This document shows positions 5,049 through 43,876 of a stretch of 64,000 nt of DNA, one piece after another. Position numbers and translations under genes: made by a program. Position 1 is the first letter of the stretch, and each line of letters opens with the position of its first letter. Below the pieces are notes generated by a model. It was not told where the DNA came from. It made no database searches and worked only from the letters and a program-made list of their open reading frames with translations. The stretch comes from a virus (Duplodnaviria; Heunggongvirae; Uroviricota; Caudoviricetes): the IMG/VR virus record IMGVR_UViG_3300011008_000007. The stretch is one strand, 5' to 3'.

Positions 5049-5657
5049 ATGGGAACAAGAAATTTAACAATGGTTGTAATTGACGGAGAATATAAGGTTG
5101 CACAGTACGGACAATGGGATGGTTATCCTGAAGGACAGGGTAAGACCTGCTTGAACTTCCTGCATAAGCTGATGGAAAATTCTATGCTTGACGAATTTGC
5201 CGGCAAGGTTCGCAAGTTACGCGAATATACCAAAGAGGATATTGAATCTATCAACAAAAGAATTGATAGCGGCGAAATCGACAATTGGCAAAAGAAATAT
5301 CCTGCATTAACCAGAGATACAGGCGCCGAGATTTTGGATTTTATCCTCGATTCTCCCGATGGCGAAAAGGTTTATATCGACTTGAACTTTGCGGCGGATA
5401 GTCTTTTCTGTGAATGGGCTTGGCTTATCGACCTGGATAAAAAGACCTTTGAGGCTTACAGAGGATTCAACCACAAGCCTTTAACGGAAGAAGATAGATT
5501 TTACTTCCTTGTAAATAATGAAGCGGATTCAAGAGATTATCTAAGCGGCGAGCCTTATCACGCAATCGTAAAAATTGCAGAATGGGATTTGGAAAATCTG
5601 CCGACCGAGGAAGAGTTTTTAAATGCCAACGCCTTTAATGAGGATGAAGAGGACTAA
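5049..5657 (+). CDS. hypothetical protein
   Basis: ORF with AAAGGAG SD. Confidence 0.5.
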   Translation: MGTRNLTMVVIDGEYKVAQYGQWDGYPEGQGKTCLNFLHKLMENSMLDEFAGKVRKLREYTKEDIESINKRIDSGEIDNWQKKYPALTRDTGAEILDFILDSPDGEKVYIDLNFAADSLFCEWAWLIDLDKKTFEAYRGFNHKPLTEEDRFYFLVNNEADSRDYLSGEPYHAIVKIAEWDLENLPTEEEFLNANAFNEDEED

Positions 5658-5659
5658 TT

Positions 5660-6058
5660 ATGGACAGAAATACAGAAGATTTTATTCGCGCGATAAAACA
5701 TAGCTCAGGAGAATACAAGGAAGGCGCTATTCAATTTATGATGGAATATACAGCATCTCCGCGCGAATCATACACTACGGGAAATTTGTTTTCGGTAGTT
5801 AAAGATTATTTTCTTGATTATATCAAGACCGGAGATGCCGCCGAGGCAATGTACTATTTCTTTGAACACAAAAGGCGAGCCATTGCCACGATGGTTATGT
5901 ATCGTCCCAACTACAAAAATTGGAACGCTTGGACGGTAGAAAGCTATTGTGCGGAACTTGACACAGAATGTATGTTGTCTGCATTGGCTTTAACAACAGT
6001 TATGAAAGACGGAAAATATGTAAACGGATTTACAGATGTAAATAAAAGGGGAATTTGA
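5660..6058 (+). CDS. hypothetical protein
   Basis: ORF. Confidence 0.45.
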   Translation: MDRNTEDFIRAIKHSSGEYKEGAIQFMMEYTASPRESYTTGNLFSVVKDYFLDYIKTGDAAEAMYYFFEHKRRAIATMVMYRPNYKNWNAWTVESYCAELDTECMLSALALTTVMKDGKYVNGFTDVNKRGI

Positions 6059-6390
6059 TTGTGAGAAATAAAGATACACTTAACAAAGCGCCGGCACTAA
6101 AGATTATTAATCGCGGATTAACGAAAGGAATAAAAGAAGAATCGTGGGATTATGTCTATCTTATTGGGGACGGAGAAAAAGCTAAAGCAATCTTTACAGA
6201 TGGCGTTGTTCTTGTTGTTACTGAGTCGGAATGTTTGCCCACAATAGATGAAACCCTTATTAAAGACTCAAAGGATGCAGACTTTAATACTCAGGATTAT
6301 TGTCGAAAGTTTGTTGAATGGGCAAAGGGGTTGCCGAATAAAACATATGAGATAACCATCCCATCTAAGGAGTATATACACTATGAATAA
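6055..6390 (+). CDS. hypothetical protein
   Basis: ORF with TTG/GTG start; start uncertain. Confidence 0.4.
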   Translation: MIVRNKDTLNKAPALKIINRGLTKGIKEESWDYVYLIGDGEKAKAIFTDGVVLVVTESECLPTIDETLIKDSKDADFNTQDYCRKFVEWAKGLPNKTYEITIPSKEYIHYE

Positions 6391-6856
6391 TACAAAACTG
6401 TCAATTTTTGGCAGAGAATCTGCAATTAGATTCTGCCAAAAGAAACACGACTACGAAACTGTTATTATCTCAATATCAACTCCCGATGTGGATTACGAAG
6501 AATCTCCGTTTATTAGCGACGAAAACAAAGTAACGGAAATTTTGGGATTATCTTTCTGCGACGCAGATTATCCAAATACAAAAGACGTTTACGGAAAAAT
6601 AACTTCCGAATCGGAGCTTATGAACGACGAGGACGCCGACAGGGTTGTTAAGTTTACGGAAAAACATATTGGAAAACATATTATAGTACATTGCGACGCG
6701 GGAATATCTCGCTCATCCGGCGTGGCAGCGGCAATTTTAAAACACTACAACGGTGACGATAGCGCCGTGTTTGATAGCCGATGGTATGCTCCGAATCGCT
6801 GGTGTTACAGGAAAGTTTTAGAAGCATTTGAAAGGTTGAGTGATAATGAAACCTAA
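6383..6856 (+). CDS. protein-tyrosine/dual-specificity phosphatase-like protein
   Basis: CX5R active-site signature HCDAGISRSSG (P-loop of the Cys-based phosphatase family). Confidence 0.6.
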   Translation: MNNTKLSIFGRESAIRFCQKKHDYETVIISISTPDVDYEESPFISDENKVTEILGLSFCDADYPNTKDVYGKITSESELMNDEDADRVVKFTEKHIGKHIIVHCDAGISRSSGVAAAILKHYNGDDSAVFDSRWYAPNRWCYRKVLEAFERLSDNET

Positions 6857-7115
6857 AATAGAGTTTATGGCAGGATATTATGAATACCTGCTCTATGTAA
6901 ATGATGAGCTTATATATGCTTGGGGCGGTGATATTCGTGACGACTGGTATGAATCTTATGAACCCGATATAGAGGCGGAAAATATGATTTATTGCGCCAT
7001 AGAGGATATTAAAGAGTCGGATAAATCCTTAGTGAAAGTAAACATCATTGAAGAGAATAAGCCCGCAATACAAGAGATAATTAAGAATTATATAAAACGA
7101 GAACTATTGATATAG
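6846..7115 (+). CDS. hypothetical protein
   Basis: ORF; ATG 6846 in frame of track ORF 6840. Confidence 0.4.
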   Translation: MKPKIEFMAGYYEYLLYVNDELIYAWGGDIRDDWYESYEPDIEAENMIYCAIEDIKESDKSLVKVNIIEENKPAIQEIIKNYIKRELLI

Positions 7116-7126
7116 GAGAAATAACT

Positions 7127-7318
7127 ATGGGAGAACTCTATAAGTATGGTATGAGATTGCGCGGAGTGGCGCCAGGTTGTCAGCCTAAAGGATTGATTCG
7201 CTGTGAAGAGGACAGAGTTGGAAATTATCACAACATCATTACCTATGACAGAGAATTGACCGAACAGGAACTTTACGATTATGAATTGGATTATTTAGGA
7301 GAACCAATCAATGAGTAA
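7127..7318 (+). CDS. hypothetical protein
   Basis: ORF with SD. Confidence 0.4.
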   Translation: MGELYKYGMRLRGVAPGCQPKGLIRCEEDRVGNYHNIITYDRELTEQELYDYELDYLGEPINE

Positions 7319-7553
7319 ACATACACCTTTGGAAAAATTGAACAACTCTATAACAAAAATCCTTGATGAAGGTAAAATTCCTAAAGGATTAACTCAGTAT
7401 AATGCCCATCAGCTCATTTATTCTTATAATTGTATAACAGAAAACGGTAGTGTTTCGTTATTTGACGAAACCGTTAAGAATTATTTGGAAAAATTGGGCT
7501 TTAAGTCTGAGGCAGAGGGAATCGGTTGGAAAATTTGGTCGGAAGGAGAATGA
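7311..7553 (+). CDS. hypothetical protein
   Basis: ORF with SD. Confidence 0.4.
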   Translation: MSKHTPLEKLNNSITKILDEGKIPKGLTQYNAHQLIYSYNCITENGSVSLFDETVKNYLEKLGFKSEAEGIGWKIWSEGE

Positions 7554-30967: not shown

Positions 30968-31214
30968 ACATACTGTAATCAAGAGAGTAACAAATTGAGT
31001 GGTGAGTAAAAAGCCTTTTGACAAATGGAGAAATTTTATTAGAATAAGTTAATTCCTCTCCCTTGAAAGGAGAAAATTTCGGTTAAAGCCCGAAATAAGA
31101 TTTTAAAGTTTGGATAAAGAAAAAGATAACGTCGCGCGAGTTATCTCCTATAGGTGTAAGTCCTATGGCTCAATTTTACATAGATAAACTAAAGATTAAG
31201 GAGTTTATTTTACT

Positions 31215-33261: not shown

Positions 33262-33729
33262 GGGGCAGTTCTGGTATTCGACAGGCTGTTGAAAGAATAA
33301 ACTTCGCAGGTAAGCTACAACCTTAATGTGCAAACTTAAAAATAAACGACAAAACTGTTGTAACACTTCATCCTGCTCTTGTAGCAACACTCTCACAGAG
33401 GGCTGCCGCATAAGCAAATTTGGATGCCAAAACAATACTCCTGCTATTCGGTAAGTATTTGAGGTTTAGGATAGAGTAGCAAAATGGTTTCTTGCTTCCA
33501 CAAAAAGTAAGTGGTGGATTTGGTTTGACGAAACTTGTCATCCCCATTCGGAATATCACGAGACCGTCACCGAATTAAAATATAAGGAGTATTATTATGG
33601 AATGCGATTAATTTAATAAAACTATGAGAACGGTAGAGGCTCGGACGGCAAAAAGAATACCTATTGCGTAAAAAGAGTTTATTTAAGTATGTAGTTTGGA
33701 CACGAGTTCGATTCTCGTCTGCTCCACCA
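33262..33729 (+). ncRNA. ssrA: tmRNA (SsrA)
   Basis: 5' GGGGCAGTTCTGGTATTCGACAGG (tmRNA consensus GGGGCUGAUUCUGGAUUCGACGGG). 3' GGACACGAGTTCGATTCTCGTCTGCTCCACCA (T-arm + acceptor pairing with the 5' end + CCA). Candidate tag ORF 33330-33413 ending ...QRAAA-stop; length 468 nt is long. Confidence 0.6.
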
Positions 33730-33912: not shown

Positions 33913-34683
33913 ATGATTTACATCACGGGTGACTGTCACGCAAAATTCGATAGATTTTCAACTAAAAGATTTCCCGAACAAAAGGAAATGACCAAAGATG
34001 ATTATGTTATCATTTGCGGCGATTTTGGCGGAGTATGGAATCATTCTGTATCAACCTCGGAAGAAAAGTATTGGCTTGATTGGCTCAATGACAAACCTTT
34101 CACAACATTATTTGTTGACGGTAATCACGAGAATTTTGACCGACTGAAAGATTTTCCTCGCAAAAATTGGAACGGAGGAATGGTACACGAAATTAGACCA
34201 AGTGTTCTCCATCTAATGAGAGGTTATGTGTTCGATTTAGGGGGAAAGAAATTCTTTACCTTTGGTGGAGCTAAAAGTCACGATATTCAAGATGGTATTT
34301 TAGACCTAAAAGATTATAAAAGCCTTTCTGATTTGGTTAAAGATTATAATCTTCGCACATTTCATTTAAGACAAATGTTGAGAATAAACCATTATTCTTG
34401 GTGGAAAGATGAACTTCCGACAACCGCCGAAATGGAACGAGGAATTAAAAATTTAAACAAAGTTGATTTTAAGGTCGATTATGTGATTTCACATTGCCCA
34501 CCAAGAGAAGTAAATGCTTGGCGAGGATATTATGACCAAGACAGATTAACAAAGTATTTTGATAAACTGCTCGAAATAGGATTAAGCTTCAAAGAATGGT
34601 GGTCAGGACACATTCATTGTAATGAATACGGAGTGTTCAGTAAATATAATGTTATCTATGAAGATATTAAGAGGTTAGTTTAA
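33913..34683 (+). CDS. calcineurin-like metallophosphoesterase
   Basis: Motifs ITGDCH, ICGDFGG, DGNHEN of the metallophosphatase fold. Confidence 0.6.
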   Translation: MIYITGDCHAKFDRFSTKRFPEQKEMTKDDYVIICGDFGGVWNHSVSTSEEKYWLDWLNDKPFTTLFVDGNHENFDRLKDFPRKNWNGGMVHEIRPSVLHLMRGYVFDLGGKKFFTFGGAKSHDIQDGILDLKDYKSLSDLVKDYNLRTFHLRQMLRINHYSWWKDELPTTAEMERGIKNLNKVDFKVDYVISHCPPREVNAWRGYYDQDRLTKYFDKLLEIGLSFKEWWSGHIHCNEYGVFSKYNVIYEDIKRLV

Positions 34684-36590: not shown

Positions 36591-38165
36591 ATGTCATTTT
36601 TTAACGAACTTAGAAAGAACATTGATGAGATTAATAATCTCCAAAAGACCGAAAACGGAGCAGTAGGTTATAAAACTACTGGCAAGAAGTTGTTGGATAT
36701 GAACTTCTCGATTCCCAAGTACAGAAAGGCAAATGAGGCTGAAATTATAGCCGATTTTGAACAGTCATTTAACGAGAACGAGATTCTTGCTATTCTTTGG
36801 ATGTTTTTCGCAAGAGATGTTCGTGGCGGACTTGGCGAAAGAAGATTATTCCGCATTTTATTCAACTGGTTTTGCAAAGAGCACACCAAGTATGCAAAAG
36901 AGTTGCTTGAATGTGTAGCAGAATATGGTCGCTGGGACGACCTTGTTAAAGCTACGGACAACACTCCTGTATGGGATGATGCGGTAGTGCTTATCAAAAA
37001 GCAGCTCACAGAAGACTTATTGAATTTTGAGGCTTCTAAAAGTATCTCACTTTTGGCTAAGTGGCTTCCGAGTGAAAGGACTTCAAGTCAGAAAACGAGA
37101 ATCCTTGCCCGCAAGTTAGCAAAGGCGCTTTCAATCAACATTGCTGATTATAACCGCATTTGTGTTAAGCTGCGCAAGTATCTTGATGTAACTGAAATCA
37201 AGATGAGCGCAAAAGAGTGGGAGAATATCAATTATTCTACGGTTCCTTCGGGCGCAAATGTAAAGTACAACAATGCTTTTCTGCGCAATGACGAAGAAAG
37301 ACGCAGAGCATATTTGGAGTCTTTGAAAAAGGGCGAAACTAAAATCAATGCTTCTGCTTTGTTCCCACACGACATTGTACATAAGTATAGCAAAAATTCT
37401 TATTGGCACGGTTCAGTAGGCTCATATGACGAAGCTCTTGAACAGTTGTGGAAGGCTCTTCCCGATATGGGCGGACTCGAAAACACGATTGTTGTTGCCG
37501 ACGGCTCTGGTTCAATGACTTGTAGAGTTGACCCAAATAGTACAACTTCTGCGCTTGAAGTAGCCAATGGTTTAGCTTTGTATTGTGCTGAACATTGCAA
37601 GGGAGAATTTAAGGATAAATATATCACATTCTCATCCAGACCTCAGTTTGTAGATTTGAGCAACAAAATCTCACTACACGACAAATTGGCTGAGGCTTAC
37701 AGACACGACGAGTGTTCAAATACCGACATCCAGGCTGTATTTGACCTTATACTCCATACTGCAACTTCAACCAATGCCAAACAAGAGGATATTCCTAAGA
37801 CTATTCTTATTGTTTCCGATATGGAGTTCGATGCCGCAACAAGTACAGGCGGTTGGTATGGTTCATCATCTTCTCTCACTCCGTCACTTTTTAAAGTAAT
37901 TGACAGAAAATATAAGGAAGCAGGTTATCAGTTGCCGCGCCTTGTATTTTGGAATGTAAACTCTCGCACAGGCACAATTCCAATGAAAGAGAATGACCTT
38001 GGAGTAACTTTGGTTAGTGGCTTCTCAATTTCGATTGTGCAGATGGTGCAGAACGGCGAAACCGACCCATACCTCAATCTTGTCAAGGTTCTTATGGGAG
38101 ATAGATATATGCCCATTTGTGCAAAATTACTCGGAAATACATTTAATAAGGAGAACTACAAATGA
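36591..38165 (+). CDS. vWA-domain protein, Ro60/TROVE-like (Rsr-like) candidate
   Basis: MIDAS motif VVADGSGSMT about 300 aa in; C-terminal blocks (IVSDMEFDAA...LPRLVFWNVNSRTGT...LGVTLVSGFS) co-linear with the Ro60 vWA region; about 520 aa like Ro60. Confidence 0.45.
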   Translation: MSFFNELRKNIDEINNLQKTENGAVGYKTTGKKLLDMNFSIPKYRKANEAEIIADFEQSFNENEILAILWMFFARDVRGGLGERRLFRILFNWFCKEHTKYAKELLECVAEYGRWDDLVKATDNTPVWDDAVVLIKKQLTEDLLNFEASKSISLLAKWLPSERTSSQKTRILARKLAKALSINIADYNRICVKLRKYLDVTEIKMSAKEWENINYSTVPSGANVKYNNAFLRNDEERRRAYLESLKKGETKINASALFPHDIVHKYSKNSYWHGSVGSYDEALEQLWKALPDMGGLENTIVVADGSGSMTCRVDPNSTTSALEVANGLALYCAEHCKGEFKDKYITFSSRPQFVDLSNKISLHDKLAEAYRHDECSNTDIQAVFDLILHTATSTNAKQEDIPKTILIVSDMEFDAATSTGGWYGSSSSLTPSLFKVIDRKYKEAGYQLPRLVFWNVNSRTGTIPMKENDLGVTLVSGFSISIVQMVQNGETDPYLNLVKVLMGDRYMPICAKLLGNTFNKENYK

Positions 38166-38995
38166 GTAAGAATTACAGCGAATTTGACAAACGAATGAAA
38201 AAATATGAGTTTGTCACAAGAACACATTTGATGACACGAACTCCTGCTATTATTAGAATTGACGGAAAGGCTTTCCATACGTTTACAAAGGGATTTAAAA
38301 AGCCTTTCGACGAAGTTCTGCAAAACAGTATGCAGGAAACAATGAAGTATTTATGTGAGAATATCCAGGGATGTGTTCTTGGATATGCGCAGTCTGATGA
38401 AATCACTTTGGTTTTGACAGATTATAAGACTCTCGAAACTTCGGCTTGGTTCGATTATAACATTCAAAAGTGCGCAAGTGTTGCGGCAAGTATGGCGACT
38501 ATGGCATTTAACAGAGCATTCCGCAAGAATGTTTTTGACTGGATGGAAGCTAATAACCCCGAAGATAAGTCTAATAATGAAGAAACTATAGCATACCATA
38601 ATCAGTTCGGTTCATATAACGCAGCATTTAATAGGGGAGCTCTATTTGATGCAAGGGTATTCAATATTCCCAAAGAAGAAGTTTGTAACAACATTCTTTG
38701 GCGCCAACAAGATGCTATCAGAAATTCTATCCAAATGGTAGGACGTTCATTCTATTCCGACAAAGAGCTTTTCGAGAAATCCACAAAGGATATTCAGGAA
38801 ATGTTATCTACGGACAAGAAAATAAATTGGGCTGAGGATTATCCTATTAGATTTCAGCGTGGTAGTTGCTGCATTAAGAAGTATGATGAGAATACCGGTC
38901 ATAATGAGTGGGTAATTGATAATGAAATCCCTATTTTCAAAGAAGAGGGAAGAGCATATATTGATAATCTTGTATTTTGCGGCGAAAATTTATAA
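38162..38995 (+). CDS. Thg1-like protein (tRNA-His guanylyltransferase family / 3'-5' polymerase)
   Basis: IIRIDGKAFHTFTKGFKKPFDE ... VLGYAQSDEITLVL matches Thg1 catalytic blocks (RxDGxxFHxF, xKPxDxR, YGQSDEYSF). Confidence 0.65.
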   Translation: MSKNYSEFDKRMKKYEFVTRTHLMTRTPAIIRIDGKAFHTFTKGFKKPFDEVLQNSMQETMKYLCENIQGCVLGYAQSDEITLVLTDYKTLETSAWFDYNIQKCASVAASMATMAFNRAFRKNVFDWMEANNPEDKSNNEETIAYHNQFGSYNAAFNRGALFDARVFNIPKEEVCNNILWRQQDAIRNSIQMVGRSFYSDKELFEKSTKDIQEMLSTDKKINWAEDYPIRFQRGSCCIKKYDENTGHNEWVIDNEIPIFKEEGRAYIDNLVFCGENL

Positions 38996-39036
38996 ATAAA
39001 ACTTGCATTTTATTTATAAAACTATCTAAAAAATTA

Positions 39037-39065
39037 TTGACAAATCAATAAAAATATGCTATAAT
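39037..39065 (+). promoter_or_regulatory. promoter TTGACA-N17-TGcTATAAT
   Basis: Hexamers 39037-39042 and 39060-39065. Confidence 0.55.
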
Positions 39066-39157
39066 ACAGTTGTAATGAGGGCGAGGGTAAGTTTAACAAC
39101 TCAAACTCCCTCGCCTTTATTGGAAATAATAAACCTATCAATAAAATTAGAGGAAAT

Positions 39158-39343
39158 ATGTATTATAAATTTATTTGTCCAAAGTGCGGAAAGCATATTG
39201 AGTTACAGATACCGATTTCACAATATAGTTCGGAAGGGCATTTTTGTGAATGCGGAGCCGAATTACAACGTGACCCAAGCGACTTCTGTACAAACAGTAA
39301 AAGGAATATAGATGGATTCTTCGGAACGTCAACCAAAAGTTAA
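39158..39343 (+). CDS. small zinc-ribbon protein
   Basis: CPKCGK...CECGAEL pairs; RBS AGAGGAAA. Confidence 0.4.
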   Translation: MYYKFICPKCGKHIELQIPISQYSSEGHFCECGAELQRDPSDFCTNSKRNIDGFFGTSTKS

Positions 39344-39346
39344 TAT

Positions 39347-39429
39347 GCGGGTGTGGCGAAATTGGCATACGCGCGAGATTTAGGTTCTCGTGTTTCGGCG
39401 TGCAGGTTCAAGTCCTGTCACCCGCACCA
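39347..39429 (+). tRNA. tRNA-Leu(TAG), type II
   Basis: Acceptor GCGGGTG/CACCCGC, anticodon arm CGAGA-TTTAGGT-TCTCG, long variable region, CCA. Confidence 0.6.
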
Positions 39430-39627
39430 AAATATAAGACACATACAGCAATCAATACATAAATTTGGCTCAAACTTTTAATTTGAATACCTTTTTATAG
39501 TGTCTTGGAGTATAAATTCCTTTCATTTTATAAATAAGGCGCACACAGCGATTTTACAATGGATTAATAAAAGCTCTTGAAAAGTTTTTTAGAGGGTTCA
39601 AGTCCCTCAACCGCGTCTTGAAATATG

Positions 39628-39703
39628 CACCATTAGTACAATCGGTTAGTACAGTCGGCTGATAATCGACAGACTGTGGTTCAAATCCACGATGGTGTAC
39701 CAG
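39628..39703 (+). tRNA. tRNA-Ile(GAT)
   Basis: Acceptor GCACCAT/ATGGTGT (G1-U72), D-stem GTAC/GTAC, anticodon loop CTGATAA, T-arm TGTGGTTCAAATCCACG, CCA. Confidence 0.6.
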
Positions 39704-39749
39704 TGTGTTTGATTTAGCACACAAATTCAATCGTTTTATTATTTTTTTC
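39704..39749 (+). terminator. intrinsic terminator
   Basis: Hairpin GTGTGTTTGATTTAGCACAC followed by T-tract TTTTATTATTTTTTT. Confidence 0.55.
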
Positions 39750-39799
39750 ATAAGAAAAATATCTGTTGCTTGCTGTCCGGTTTAAAGCAACAGGTATAT

Positions 39800-39894
39800 G
39801 GCAGCCTAACCCTAATTGGTAAGGGAGTAGTCTTGAAAACTACCAGTAATCGCCGAGAGGTGGTGTCTCGGTTCAAGTCCGAGGGCTGTCGCCA
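39800..39894 (+). tRNA. tRNA-Ser(TGA), type II
   Basis: Acceptor GGCAGCC/GGCTGTC, anticodon arm GTAGT-CTTGAAA-ACTAC, long variable arm, T-arm CTCGGTTCAAGTCCGAG, CCA. Confidence 0.65.
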
Positions 39895-40569
39895 ATGACC
39901 TGATGGCGCGTCAGGACGGTTTGGGATTAGCCCATCACAGCCGATACCGTAAAAACAGAAGACCTCTCAATAATAAAAGTATTAACTGGATTATTGAAGT
40001 CGCCCACCTGTTCCAAAGTCGGTGTTTAAAATAGATAGTCAATGTTGCGAATATAGACGGGGCAATTTTCATATAAGCAAGATGAACTCAATAGAGAACC
40101 CATCGGCAAAGTCCTCGTTAGCCACCTCCGCGGGCACTGCTTCTATGGCTGATGGTGCCTATTGACTTCCATATAAACGAGAAGAACGCAACTCTCTGTT
40201 CGGGTCGAAATGATATATACCCGTTCGGTGCTGATACCTATCAGACGGTTATATGGCGTTACACTCCTACCAATACGATAAATTGGGGAAACACAATAGG
40301 GAGAAGAATAATGAAAGCACATTACAACAAGCAATTTTCAAACTATGGACGATTGATTGTGCATTCGGTGTGGTTGCATTTATCATAGGGCACAAATTGC
40401 GACAATTAAATAATTAGTTGGAAGAAAAGGGCGAAAAAGACATAAGCTATGACTTCCCGATAATCTTCAAGGTGTGGACGTGGTGTTGGCTATGCAAACC
40501 AACTGATAGTGTTTAGGCATAGAGTAGAAATTATCTCTTCCAGCTAATTGTTTTGATTGTTTTAGATAT

Positions 40570-40655
40570 GCGGGTGTGATGGAATTGGCAGACATAAGGG
40601 ACTTAAAATCCCTTGGGTTTATCCCGTATCAGTTCGAGTCTGATTACCCGCACCA
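40570..40655 (+). tRNA. tRNA-Leu(TAA), type II
   Basis: Acceptor GCGGGTG/TACCCGC, anticodon arm AGGGA-CTTAAAA-TCCCT, variable hairpin, T-arm ATCAGTTCGAGTCTGAT, CCA. Confidence 0.65.
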
Positions 40656-40743
40656 AAGCAAGAATATTATAATAAAGTTTATACCCTTTGCGGGTCTTAT
40701 AAAAAAGTTTTAATTCTTGCACAGACACAGACAGCAAACCTTA

Positions 40744-40813
40744 AACGAATTAGTCAAACGGTAAGACACACCTCGAAACGGTGCAATTGTGGGTTCAACT
40801 CCCATATTCGCAA
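40744..40813 (+). pseudogene. degenerate tRNA-Phe-like element (anticodon loop TCGAAAC, C33)
   Basis: T-arm GTGGGTTCAACTCCCAT and anticodon GAA-like loop, but only 5 bp of acceptor pairing and C at position 33. Confidence 0.3.
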
Positions 40814-40839
40814 AGCGTGTCTGGAAACAATTGAATATG

Positions 40840-40967
40840 AGGGGTATAGCTCAATTGGTAGAGCGCTGTAATTTTTCAGTATCTTGCAAAAGATACATAC
40901 AGCAAACCATTACATAAAATAATGCTTAGGGAGCCAGATGTTACAGGTTCGAGTCCTGTTGCCCCTC
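40840..40967 (+). ncRNA. atypical tRNA-like gene 1 (128 nt; Ala-like 5' half; internal Cys-like TTGCAAA hairpin)
   Basis: Canonical acceptor AGGGGTA/TGCCCCT, D-arm AGCTCAATTGGTAGAGC and T-arm ACAGGTTCGAGTCCTGT, but about 77 nt between them. Contains hairpin GTATCTTGCAAAAGATAC + ACAGCAAACC. Confidence 0.45.
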
Positions 40968-40975
40968 GCAAATAT

Positions 40976-41097
40976 GCCGGTGTAGCCCAATGGTAGAGCA
41001 GCGGACGCATAATGTGTCTTGATTTAGAAAACACTTGCAGCAATTAAGCGGTCAAGAAAACCGTGTGTTGGAGGTTCGATTCCTCTCCGCCGGCACC
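40976..41097 (+). ncRNA. atypical tRNA-like gene 2 (122 nt; Thr-like ends)
   Basis: Acceptor GCCGGTG/CGCCGGC-A-CCA, D-arm TAGCCCAATGGTAGAGC, T-arm GGAGGTTCGATTCCTCT. Central insert with outer helix CGCATAAT/ATTAAGCG, hairpin GTGTCTTGATTTAGAAAACAC + GCAGCAATT. Confidence 0.45.
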
Positions 41098-41100
41098 AAA

Positions 41101-41220
41101 TGGGAGCGTAGCTCAGTTGGTAGAGTAATAGTAATGAAAAGTTGTCTTGTAAAGACAATAACAGCAATCTATTAAGTTCCAAACTATGTGTCGCAAGTTC
41201 GATTCTTGTCGCTCCCTCCA
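41101..41220 (+). ncRNA. atypical tRNA-like gene 3 (120 nt). Equals tRNA-Gly(TCC) if a 43 nt insert between positions 31/32 is removed
   Basis: Acceptor GGGAGCG/CGCTCCC-T-CCA. With the insert AATGAAAAG-TTGTCTTGTAAAGACAA-TAACAGCAAT-CTATTAA excised, anticodon arm ATAGT-GTTCCAA-ACTAT. The insert itself holds a Tyr-like hairpin TTGTC-TTGTAAA-GACAA. Confidence 0.5.
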
Positions 41221-41223
41221 TAT

Positions 41224-41363
41224 GGGGATGTAGCTCAGTCGGTTAGAGCAGCGTTAAAATTTATTAAGTGTCTTGTTTGTAAAGATACACCCAGCAATCT
41301 TATTTTAATGAAGAAAATAGCTTGTTAAGCCGCAGGTCGTAGGTTCGAGCCCTACCATCCCCA
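41224..41363 (+). ncRNA. atypical tRNA-like gene 4 (140 nt). Resembles tRNA-Asn(GTT) with a 66 nt insert 5' of the anticodon loop
   Basis: Acceptor GGGGATG/CATCCCC. 3' half ...TTGTTAA-GCCGC-AGGTC-GTAGGTTCGAGCCCTAC is Asn-like. Insert has outer helix TTAAAAT/ATTTTAA, hairpin GTGTCTTG...AAAGATACAC + CCAGCAATC. No CCA encoded. Confidence 0.45.
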
Positions 41364-41376
41364 CTCTCCTTTATTA

Positions 41377-41461
41377 GGGCGGGTCGCATAGTGGCAATTG
41401 CGGTGGGCTGTAAACCCACTTCGGTAACGATTCGTAGGTTCGAGTCCTACTCCGCCCACCA
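41377..41461 (+). tRNA. tRNA-Tyr(GTA), type II
   Basis: Acceptor GGGCGGG/TCCGCCC, anticodon arm GTGGG-CTGTAAA-CCCAC, variable arm, T-arm GTAGGTTCGAGTCCTAC, CCA. Confidence 0.65.
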
Positions 41462-41545
41462 AACCCTTTTGTGGCAATCTAAGTCAATATCATAAGATGT
41501 GAGTCCATAATAAATTATTCCTTGCTTTGGGTACAAGGAAAACAT

Positions 41546-41619
41546 ACAGGGTATGGTGTAATGGTAACACACTACATTTGGGATGTAGGGTCGCGGTTCA
41601 AATCCGATACCTTGTGCCA
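41546..41619 (+). tRNA. tRNA-Pro(TGG) (weak T-stem)
   Basis: Acceptor ACAGGGT/ACCTTGT-G-CCA, anticodon arm CTACA-TTTGGGA-TGTAG; T-stem has only 3 clean pairs. Confidence 0.45.
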
Positions 41620-41738
41620 GTCTGTGAAAGCAGACCAAAGGTACTGACATATTCACCTATCAAGTGGTGGGGCAAAACCCTACTACGAAAGAAGTTGGGG
41701 GAACTTCTATAAAAAACCCCGTCCAATCCTATTTATAT

Positions 41739-41825
41739 GGGAGCGTGGTGGAACTGGCAGACACGCGGGACTCAAACTCCCGCGCCGTTCGCGGCGTATG
41801 GGTTCAAATCCCATCGCTCCCACCA
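41739..41825 (+). tRNA. tRNA-Leu(CAA), type II
   Basis: Acceptor GGGAGCG/CGCTCCC-A-CCA, anticodon arm CGGGA-CTCAAAC-TCCCG, variable hairpin GCCGTTCGCGGC, T-arm ATGGGTTCAAATCCCAT. Confidence 0.7.
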
Positions 41826-41851
41826 AATCAAAATAATAAGGAGATAAAATT

Positions 41852-42553
41852 ATGCCTACAAGAAATGAGAACTTAGAAAAGATTCTTAAAAATCCTACAA
41901 GGGAAACAATAACTGTGTACGATGGAAAAGTGGAATATCCAATCGGTGAAATGTGCGTTGCGGATTCATTGCCGATTCTTCCTGTGGATGAACTTAGTCC
42001 TAAACCTATTGTGGCAAAAGAAACCAAAGATAAACTGGGTCGCAAACAAAAGATTACCAAGGGCTTTTTTTATGGGGATTGGTGTAACATTGTCCTTGAA
42101 ACATATTATCAAGGTTGTTTGTTCAATATATATTCGCTGATACCCGAAATTACTGATGTTTCTGTCAAAAATAAGAGCGCGATTATTGTTTCGTTTGGAG
42201 ATGGCACGAAAGAAAAGGCAATTTTACATAAAGATGATACATTCTCGCTTGAACAGGGTATTTCAATTTGCATTTCTAAGAAACTTCTTTCCGAGATGAC
42301 AGAGGGCAGAGGAAATTCTGCATACAACAAACTTGTTCGATATGGTTTAAAGAGGTACAAAGAGTGCGAGAAAAATAAGTCGGAGCAAAAGAAGAAAAAA
42401 GAGGAAGCCAAAAAGCAAAAGGCTCTTCGTGAAGAAAAACGAAAGAAGAAGAATGAAAAGAAAAAAGAGCGAGAGATAAACATTCGTAAGGAAGCATATC
42501 TTCGTGCAATGCGCGAAATGGAGAATAGCAAAAGCCCTGAGCGCGAATCATAA
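41852..42553 (+). CDS. hypothetical protein with Lys/Glu-rich low-complexity C-terminus
   Basis: ORF with AAGGAG SD; KKKKEEAKKQK... tail. Confidence 0.5.
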   Translation: MPTRNENLEKILKNPTRETITVYDGKVEYPIGEMCVADSLPILPVDELSPKPIVAKETKDKLGRKQKITKGFFYGDWCNIVLETYYQGCLFNIYSLIPEITDVSVKNKSAIIVSFGDGTKEKAILHKDDTFSLEQGISICISKKLLSEMTEGRGNSAYNKLVRYGLKRYKECEKNKSEQKKKKEEAKKQKALREEKRKKKNEKKKEREINIRKEAYLRAMREMENSKSPERES

Positions 42554-43040: not shown

Positions 43041-43334
43041 ATGAACATAGATATATTTTTAACGGTGCGCGCCTTGTGTGGTGTGGCAATTATGATTAAT
43101 CTTGCTTTGTATTTTTTGTTTAGACATAAAGAGTATTCAGCTTTGATTTATTCGGTAGTTTTAGGCGGCATTTTTACCATAGATTTTATTGCAGCGCTTA
43201 ATGAAGGTACAGTTTGGCGCCCTCTAATATTTGGCATAGGTTTGATAGCAATAATCTTTTTAATTGCCGCAGATATAAATTTTTATTTATCTGATGATGA
43301 ATATGAAGAACTGGAGCAGAACGATACGGAATGA
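43041..43334 (+). CDS. small membrane protein
   Basis: Two hydrophobic segments; ATG 43041 preferred over track start 43029. Confidence 0.4.
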
Positions 43335-43876
43335 ATATAACAAAAATCAGTCGCTATTTAAGTATGATACTAAGACATAAGCCAGAAGAAATTGGAATTA
43401 CACTCGATGAACACGGATGGGCAAACACCAAAGATATTCTTGCTGGATTAAAAATTGATATGCCGACACTACAACATATTGTAAAAACCGATAATAAACA
43501 ACGTTATTCATTTAACAAAGATGAGAGTAAAATTCGGGCAAATCAAGGACATTCTATTCCTGTTGACGTTGAACTCGAAGAAGTAATGCCACCAGCCGTT
43601 TTATATCACGGAACCGGTAAGAAATATGTAGATTCTATTGATAAGCAAGGATTAATACCAAAATCTCGCCTATATGTTCATTTGTCTTTGGATAAAGAAA
43701 CTGCATATGAAGTGGGTAAGAGGCACGGTTCTCCTTATATTTATAAGGTTGATTCGGAAGCTATGCACAAAGATGGATATAAATTCTTCCTGTCTGTAAA
43801 TGGTGTTTATTTAACTAAAGAAGTTCCTACAAAGTATTTGAGTTTGGATTACAGTATGTTTTCAAGAGGTATTTAA
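43331..43876 (+). CDS. RNA 2'-phosphotransferase Tpt1/KptA family
   Basis: [28 protein letters not shown] ... [28 protein letters not shown] matches the KptA/Tpt1 signature (LRH, HGT, VHLS). Confidence 0.65.

Follow-up and report, generated by a model that had tools for sequence, protein, structure and literature searches.

A probable family of large structured RNAs in the tRNA arrays of gut and rumen phages

Introduction

Between the genes for transfer RNA (tRNA)-Ser(UGA) and tRNA-Leu(UAA) in IMG/VR record IMGVR_UViG_3300011008_000007, a virus of the Caudoviricetes, lie 675 nt (positions 39895–40569) with no recognizable gene. What occupies this gap? An original prediction, made from the letters alone, described a relatively G+C-rich segment holding only short overlapping open reading frames (ORFs). 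It proposed a candidate structured non-coding RNA, with a group I intron remnant, an RNase P-like or another ribozyme or a large sRNA as examples, and kept a decayed gene as the alternative. We analyzed the gap within the whole 64,000-nt stretch of DNA (hereafter the window, to which all positions refer unless another locus is named), together with related loci designated by L numbers. With good confidence, we conclude that a single large non-coding RNA, pseudoknotted and composed of several domains, is encoded by the + strand of the gap. It has a core of ~520 nt (40037–40553) and a small optional 5′ module, and represents an uncatalogued family from the tRNA arrays of uncultivated gut and rumen phages.

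Large, highly structured RNAs of bacteria and phages are rare. Time and again, new biochemistry has emerged from those that have been solved, namely the ribosome, RNase P, group I and group II introns and, most recently, the nanocages of GOLLD and ROOL. The RNA described here adds a new class to a kind of entity that is already known, the large structured RNA in phage tRNA arrays.

Results

The gap belongs to a sequence family found in gut and rumen contigs

The boundaries of the gap were confirmed exactly by ARAGORN, which places the following genes on either side:

39800–39894, + strand: tRNA-Ser(UGA), also matched by the Rfam tRNA model (38.5 bits); its 3′ end, ..GUCGCCA, is the 5′ boundary of the RNA
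40570–40655, + strand: tRNA-Leu(UAA), also matched by Rfam

Both strings that had been quoted as G+C-rich are present (GGCGCGTCAGGACGG at 39905–39919; GGCAAAGTCC...CACTGC at 40105–40140). The gap is indeed richer in G+C than the window (41.0% versus 35.8%; 92nd percentile of 675-nt windows), but the predicted excess over the flanking DNA did not hold, as neither the tRNA island (42.7%) nor the downstream flank (43.5%) is exceeded.

Homologs were first sought in loci fetched via the neighboring Thg1 protein. In nhmmer searches, two unrelated contigs matched the gap (L001, E = 5e-43; L002, E = 5e-42), and a partial copy was found in L005. Alignment of the homologs revealed invariant blocks, with indels between them that are not multiples of three. 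Further members were gathered by pattern scans with the conserved blocks. The most productive pattern, the 3′ block GCAAACCAAC-N5-GTGTTT-N-GGC, retrieved 13 viral contigs, 31 metagenome contigs and four true matches in gut metagenome-assembled genomes (MAGs); a 17-mer, GCAAAGTCCTCGTTAGC, and its N-variant gave mostly chance matches within genes (e.g. in L019). After removal of duplicates, about 30 distinct members remained; their samples came from the rumen and from the guts of humans and rabbits. R1, a covariance model built on the 3′ domain described below, gave 40 matches with E values from 1.7e-31 to ~5e-3, the two weakest being L070, which we treated as chance, and a remnant in L003. On the window (40407–40553), R1 scored 86.7 bits (E = 4.5e-23), placing the gap in the family through its 3′ domain.

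A blastn search against 50,697 GenBank phage records left the gap unmatched and returned the flanking tRNAs only; the conservation with compensatory changes that the original prediction had hoped to obtain in this way came from the other searches. A genome scan for a host found no isolate genome carrying the RNA, the true copies being limited to gut MAG contigs in Clostridia, Lachnospiraceae and Alistipes bins. Likewise, no RNA family was assigned to the gap by Rfam, with the whole window scanned at gathering thresholds, the region at E ≤ 10 and 14 homolog loci at E ≤ 1. The matches obtained were tRNAs, a transfer-messenger RNA (tmRNA) and chance-level hits to RT-6, COG2827 and fluoride (12–17 bits). 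The Rfam scan proposed for this locus thus leaves the gap without a catalogued family, and none of the example classes (group I intron, RNase P or other ribozyme) gave a single match even at E ≤ 10. We found no description of this RNA family in the literature; a large survey of viral structured RNAs comprises motifs of up to 151 nt (PMC10690425).

Compensatory base changes define a multi-domain structure

The proposal of a large structured RNA was borne out by extensive compensatory base changes among the homologs. For the 15 full-length members, RNAalifold predicted 70 base pairs, 42 of which show compensatory double changes. In the predicted structure 95.7% of cells are paired, as compared to 35–45% in slid controls, and 42 pairs are changed on both sides, as compared to 11–20. 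The number of cells changed on both sides is 160 (15–35 in slid controls) and the covariation score is 0.483 (0.07–0.10); values as high as those observed were not attained in any of 500 shuffles. Several G-U pairs are near-invariant (columns 41/119, 42/118 and 45/115 are G-U in 14–15 of the 15 members, columns 139/155 U-G in all 15). As a G-U pair corresponds to A-C on the opposite strand, these pairs assign the RNA to the + strand. The order and spacing of three domains are constant in all full-length members. The elements of the structure are as follows:

39899–39950, + strand: optional 5′ module, with hairpin A (39899–39905/39909–39915), helix B (39916–39920/39946–39950) and hairpin C (39922–39925/39931–39934)
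39951–40036, + strand: A+U-rich linker, poorly conserved (alignments A1 and A2)
40037–40167, + strand: domain 1, pseudoknotted, with P1 (40037–43/40161–67), P2 (40047–49/40129–31), the pseudoknot (40053–57/40142–46), P3 (40058–62/40113–17; holds AAAGUCC) and P4 (40132–40/40148–60)
40173–40253, + strand: domain 2, a three-way junction, with a closing helix (40173–79/40246–53) and hairpins 40201–05/40219–23 and 40231–34/40241–44
40270–40286, + strand: hairpin with the conserved loop UACGNUAAA, 98% paired, two of four pairs compensatory
40287–40406, + strand: variable middle region, with a small hairpin (40351–55/40362–66) and a non-conserved Shine-Dalgarno (SD)-like site and ATG (40299–40313)
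40407–40553, + strand: 3′ domain, the hallmark of the family, with a closing helix (40413–22/40539–48) and a GAGGYG-GG motif (40469–78)
40490–95/40517–22, + strand: irregular hairpin of the 3′ domain, around the invariant core GCAAACCAAC-N5-GUGUUU-N-GGC (40494–40518)

The 3′ domain is enclosed by a 10-bp closing helix, of which nine pairs covary among the full-length members. In an alignment of 36 distinct 3′-domain sequences, which was fitted to model R1, all 11 pairs of the closing helix are compensatory and 93.3% of cells are paired (28–49% in slid controls). In domain 1, 99.7% of cells are paired (41–52% in slid controls) and 11 of 22 pairs are changed on both sides. Its P1 occurs in no fewer than seven sequence versions and forms a duplex in every one of the 15 members, and its pseudoknot is 100% paired with four of five pairs compensatory (e.g. 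AUAGG/CCUAU versus GUGAG/CUCAC in L023). The closing helix of domain 2 is 98% paired with six of eight pairs compensatory; the hairpin at 40201–05/40219–23, in which all five pairs are compensatory, presents a near-invariant 13-nt loop (40206–40218) ending in GAAAUGAUAUAU. For the 5′ module, RNAalifold on the window, L001, L085, L061 and L063 gave 16 pairs, seven of them compensatory; the module is absent where a tRNA abuts domain 1 directly, as in L099, L065 and L073. A long-range helix between 40041–40048 and 40399–40406 is 82% paired and competes with P1 and P2, and we consider it tentative. A scan for additional covarying helices returned mostly G-U-rich noise, from which only the domain 1 pseudoknot and P2 held.

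The gap has no coding potential

We also considered whether the gap is instead a protein gene that has decayed, is very small or uses a reassigned stop codon. The original description of short overlapping ORFs applies: 22 ORFs of at least 20 codons overlap 39700–40700, and the longest in the gap encodes 78 residues (40152–40388). The accompanying statement that no start is preceded by an SD sequence is not strictly right, as inside this ORF GGGAG (40299–40303) lies 7 nt ahead of an in-frame ATG at 40311, which would give a 25-residue peptide. While these features are what a small gene might offer, the 25-residue ORF is not conserved in any homolog, and in each of the 14 homologs every frame of the region aligned to the 78-residue ORF is interrupted by two or more stops. 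Moreover, the indels are not multiples of three, and substitution rates by codon position are flat (0.43/0.36/0.40), i.e. there is no codon periodicity. Among 90 frames, only frame +2 of the window and frame +1 of L085 lack TAA; because both carry TAG as well as TGA stops, no single stop reassignment opens a frame. Conservation tracks base pairing instead. The decayed gene offered as an alternative is therefore rejected, and a coding explanation of any of these kinds is scarcely credible.

The RNA is built from optional and universal modules

Members of the family differ in their complement of domains. Domain 1 is missing from the short members, which measure ~300 nt; all of them keep the 3′ domain, and in most the domain 2 hairpin with the GAAAYGAUAYAY loop is also present. 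In a subgroup (L101, L105, L106, L060, L072, L074 and L080), mainly the 3′ domain is kept. MAFFT and RNAalifold applied to the short members recovered only two universal hairpins, their middle regions being too diverse. Conversely, L005 contains domain 1 alone (7232–7372 of that locus), closed by a 10-bp helix and situated directly upstream of a small ORF starting at 7387, which hints at an independent working or a leader role of this domain.

This modular build raises the possibility that the gap gives rise to several independent small RNAs, corresponding to the 5′ module, to domain 1 and to domains 2 to 3, each of which would be freed from a polycistron in the manner of the phage T4 RNAs C and D. 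Domain 1 occurring alone in L005 and L055, the ~300-nt members without domain 1 and the optional 5′ module would all fit such an arrangement, as would the weakness of the sole helix tying domain 1 to the rest (40041–48/40399–406; 82%, in competition with P1 and P2). However, there is no tRNA-like or other recognizable processing signal between the domains, domain order and spacing are the same in 15 of 15 full-length members, and domains 2 and 3 always occur together. We consider separate small RNAs rather unlikely, and a single multi-domain RNA remains our preferred interpretation.

The distribution of the RNA is patchy. Among the Thg1-bearing loci, 14 lack the 3′ domain (one of these, L005, keeps domain 1), and L003 retains only the last ~90 nt of the RNA, a TnpB/Cas12f-like gene and a CRISPR-like array having taken the place of the remainder. 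Such a pattern could be produced by a mobile DNA element or intron remnant that is conserved as DNA rather than as a functional RNA, the occupation of the L003 site by a TnpB/Cas12f-like gene and repeat array being in line with it. Yet neither inverted nor direct repeats were observed at its termini, both neighboring tRNAs are intact and thus leave no split exon, and at E ≤ 10 the intron models of group I and group II gave no match. In addition, compensatory changes keep G-U-containing helices on one strand, which shows selection at the RNA level. A mobile DNA remnant is thus very improbable as an explanation of the gap.

The replacement in L003 merits separate description. In this locus (IMGVR_UViG_2593339225_000003, 5120–7325), a 488-codon TnpB/Cas12f-like ORF (PF07282 and PF01385) is followed by the repeat array, which consists of 6–7 repeats of ~32 nt each with a period of ~65 nt, exactly at the site of the large RNA in its relatives.

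The RNA is embedded among same-strand tRNAs

In most of 35 unique loci, the RNA lies between tRNAs of the same strand, and no tRNA is predicted nearby on the opposite strand. The nearest upstream same-strand tRNA is tRNA-Ser(UGA) also in L001, L023, L061, L063, L065, L085, L090, L099 and L102, and in several loci the RNA begins immediately after the ..GCCA end of a tRNA. Downstream, the next same-strand tRNA starts 42–57 nt past the invariant core, i.e. just after the closing helix, in about 15 of the 35 loci. L106, a 210-kb rabbit-gut MAG contig, presents a different picture, as ARAGORN finds no tRNA adjacent to its RNA copy. Here the RNA is flanked by tRNA-like 3′ halves, GGTTCAATCCCGATTTTTCCCGCCA and GGTTCGACTCCATCCCTCTCGACCA (~6440–6480 and 6020–6070 of that contig, minus strand), which suggests unusual or interrupted tRNAs at this locus too.

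Just past the Thg1 gene and ahead of the second tRNA cluster of the window, we noted a candidate promoter:

39037–39065, + strand: predicted promoter with TTGACA, a 17-nt spacer, TATAAT and an extended −10 TG, matching the sigma-70 consensus in 12 of 12 positions

This element is the probable promoter of a polycistron comprising the tRNAs and the RNA. A search for terminator-like sites on the + strand found none in 38900–42100. With a promoter upstream and no + strand terminator following, the RNA is therefore probably cut from the tRNA polycistron by tRNA-processing enzymes. In such a scheme, the RNA would be co-transcribed with the tRNAs from the promoter at 39037–39065, 3′ processing of tRNA-Ser would set its 5′ end and RNase P cleavage at the 5′ end of tRNA-Leu would set its 3′ end. 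The enzymes that mature the neighboring tRNAs would in this way free a stable RNA.

Neighboring genes include an extensive RNA repair and tRNA toolkit

The window resembles part of a large phage genome, with long ORFs almost all on the + strand and a tRNA island spanning ~31–42 kb. For its NAD-dependent ligase, the nearest deposited relatives come from uncultivated human-fecal phage fragments and Clostridium phage c-st (41.6% identity). Apart from tRNAs, we assigned the following genes in or together with the island:

33262–33729: tmRNA (Rfam, 76 bits)
33913–34683: metallophosphoesterase
36591–38165: Ro/TROVE-like protein (DUF2828 and DUF7788)
38162–38995: Thg1-family tRNA-His guanylyltransferase
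43331–43876: Tpt1/KptA RNA 2′-phosphotransferase

Taken together, tmRNA, metallophosphoesterase, Ro-like protein, Thg1 and Tpt1 make up a toolkit for RNA repair and tRNAs that is unusually complete. Homologs of the metallophosphoesterase occur in 18 fetched loci, and homologs of the product of a 233-codon ORF without Pfam or PHROG match (41852–42553) are found beside the RNA and tRNA array in 17; the recurrence of these neighbors may be meaningful or mere synteny.

Three consecutive tRNA genes downstream of the gap (40840–40967, 40976–41095 and 41102–41217) were recognized by Rfam (46.5, 36.8 and 48.3 bits, respectively), all three having been missed by ARAGORN. They carry ~43–57 extra nucleotides in the region of the anticodon stem-loop (66, 56 and 50 nt, versus 11, 9 and 7 nt in the model). 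By sequence, the insertions look like short tRNA introns, which is of note given the presence of Tpt1/KptA in the same island. On the other hand, two ARAGORN calls of tRNA-Ser(UGA), at 39547–39617 and 31032–31103, are 71–72 nt long, which is less than a class II serine tRNA requires, and fall below the Rfam gathering score; they are probably miscalls or degenerate tRNAs.

One of these neighbors suggests a possible partner for the RNA. Bacterial Y RNAs bind Ro and recruit nucleases for quality control of structured RNAs, and the present RNA could be a giant analog that associates with the Ro/TROVE-like protein. In the window and in seven other lineages, including divergent short forms (38–46% protein identity), the distance between the RNA and a Ro-like gene is 1.1–3.6 kb; moreover, among 18 Thg1-anchored loci only L001 and L002 have a Ro-like gene, and only the same two have a complete RNA. 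This linkage is nevertheless partial. At least ten RNA loci with 4.5–15 kb of flanking sequence are without a Ro-like gene (e.g. L022, L023, L062, L063, L065, L066, L074, L080 and L092), while gut fragments L110 and L111 have the Ro-like gene without the RNA. Hundreds of GenBank phages encode a Ro-like protein and none of them matches the RNA, no Y RNA family matched, and the co-occurrence may reflect shared synteny only. A Ro-bound function is, in our view, doubtful.

The RNA could also be a ribozyme that acts on phage tRNAs, be it in the manner of RNase P or on the three insertion-bearing tRNAs, or an RNA that processes itself. Long invariant stretches in loops and junctions (GAAAYGAUAYA, UACGNUAAA, GAGGYG and AAACCAAC..GUGUUU) would suit a catalyst, and the RNA is always found in a tRNA context, in this island alongside Thg1, Tpt1 and the insertion-bearing tRNAs. 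However, no ribozyme family matched at E ≤ 10, a string resembling RNase P helix P4 pairs locally (see below), no catalytic signature is apparent from the sequence and, judged by tRNA lengths, insertion-bearing tRNAs are not evident in most other RNA loci. We therefore regard a catalytic role as improbable.

Discussion

Some points weigh against reading the gap as a single large RNA of the proposed kind. That the RNA is transcribed, where it ends and how stable it is are predictions from sequence. Members were collected with exact conserved-block patterns, so that the invariance of the blocks is partly circular and the collection does not measure how broad the family is. Alignment A6 favors pairing, having been fitted to the model structure, and the covariation of the pseudoknot depends on two divergent sequences, the window and L023. 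The occurrence of domain 1 alone in L005 and its absence from the short members mean that the one RNA could be two adjacent RNAs. The proposed functional analogy to GOLLD and ROOL comes from context, neither of them being detectably homologous. Finally, single-sequence folding energy is unremarkable (z = −0.43 for the + strand and +0.89 for the − strand); for RNAs of this type, such a test is not informative.

As to function, the most likely mode of action is, tentatively, that of a free-standing structural RNA comparable to GOLLD and ROOL. By this analogy, the RNA might serve as a scaffold or form an RNA-only assembly during infection, probably touching tRNA or translation biology, and its invariant loops and 3′ hairpin might be contact or binding sites. 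More broadly, we lean towards placing the family (300–650 nt, modular, pseudoknotted, derived from a tRNA operon and with an invariant 3′ hairpin domain) beside GOLLD and ROOL, as an independent third class among the giant ornate RNAs of phages. It would act during infection as an RNA-only machine, either a multimeric cage or scaffold or a ribozyme on tRNAs or the translation apparatus. If so, phages would have invented large RNAs associated with tRNA arrays repeatedly and convergently, GOLLD and ROOL being more than a pair of oddities, and a further unrelated family in this niche would strengthen the idea of an RNA-based phage function tied to tRNAs or translation. The family offers a fairly compact target for cryo-electron microscopy and biochemistry, with a short form of ~300 nt and domains that can be tested separately. 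It also draws attention to a large gut and rumen phage lineage rich in RNA repair and tRNA tools, including Thg1, Tpt1, a Ro-like protein, tmRNA and insertion-bearing tRNAs.

Relation to known RNA families

The resemblance to bacterial RNase P RNA consists in a string similar to the P4 strand GNAAAGUCC (GCAAAGUCC, 40106–40114), an ACAG..GGC string near the 3′ end and the link to tRNAs. The original prediction had already distrusted this likeness, and rightly so. AAAGUCCUCGUU pairs locally with GGCGGGG rather than with a distal ACAG..GGCUUA element, AAAGUCC being the 3′ strand of helix P3. The two strands covary (GC to CG in three sequences and CG to UA in two; e.g. GGCGGCGU/AAAUCGUCGUU in L022), and while AAAGUCC varies to AAAAUCG or AAAGUCA, the candidate distal partner AGGC is unchanged. 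Furthermore, no Rfam RNase P model matched at E ≤ 10 and, unlike in RNase P RNA, domain 1 occurs without the 3′ domain in L005. A group I intron was rejected in a similar way, as Intron_gpI gave no match at E ≤ 10 and both flanking tRNAs are complete, with no split exons.

With the Y RNAs and YrlA, which are bound by Ro (Rsr), the present RNA shares a structured nature, proximity to a Ro/TROVE-family gene and a tRNA-related context. It is several times larger than these RNAs, however, matches no Y RNA model at E ≤ 10 and is only partially linked to the Ro gene. The T4 tRNA cluster encodes the small stable RNAs C and D (species 1 and 2), non-tRNA molecules of ~120–140 nt that reside in a phage tRNA operon and are freed by the tRNA-processing machinery. 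Embedding in a tRNA operon is common to these RNAs and the present one; the T4 RNAs are smaller, have no known sequence relation to it and belong to another phage group.

The closest parallels in kind are GOLLD and ROOL, large ornate RNAs of phages and prophages that lie near tRNA islands and form RNA-only nanocages (PMC12286853; PMC5737381). An identity with either of them was rejected, for GOLLD by model searches in both directions and for ROOL by Rfam and family-profile searches. The Rfam GOLLD model (RF02032; gathering score 150 bits) found no match in 39700–40700 at E ≤ 10 or in the 14 homolog loci at E ≤ 1, while as a positive control it scored 196 bits on a true GOLLD RNA, L114. In reverse, R1 run with filters off against three loci fetched at the published GOLLD alignment coordinates, of which only L114 reached the Rfam gathering score, returned only generic hairpins at E > 1. 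Nhmmer searches with family profiles left the 5′ 461 nt of GOLLD env-38 unmatched. Two short resemblances were dismissed: a GCAAAACCAACU..UUUAGG string (D3-like) in GOLLD env-38 lies within the non-conserved linker of GOLLD and was treated as chance, and the similarity between GOLLD consensus AAAGCAAAAGUCUUCGU and domain 1 GCAAAGUCCUCGUU was judged not significant. For ROOL (RF03087), Rfam gave no match in the region at E ≤ 10 or in the 14 homolog loci at E ≤ 1, and family profiles did not match ROOL env-120 at E ≤ 100.

ROOL is, like the present RNA, found in phages and prophages near tRNAs; it measures ~580 nt, was first seen in cow rumen metagenomes and, with no function known, contains numerous junctions and pseudoknots (PMC5737381). 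Invariant nucleotides are few in ROOL but form long blocks in the present family, perhaps in part owing to the way its members were collected. Compared to GOLLD (~800 nt), the present RNA is smaller (~300–650 nt) and comes from gut and rumen contigs only so far. Like GOLLD, it is large, multi-domain and pseudoknotted, and lies in or beside co-oriented tRNA arrays of phages or prophages. In GOLLD, a conserved 3′ region is combined with a variable 5′ region (PMC12286853; PMC5737381), and the universal 3′ domain and optional 5′ domains of the present family repeat this arrangement, a resemblance in kind rather than evidence of homology.

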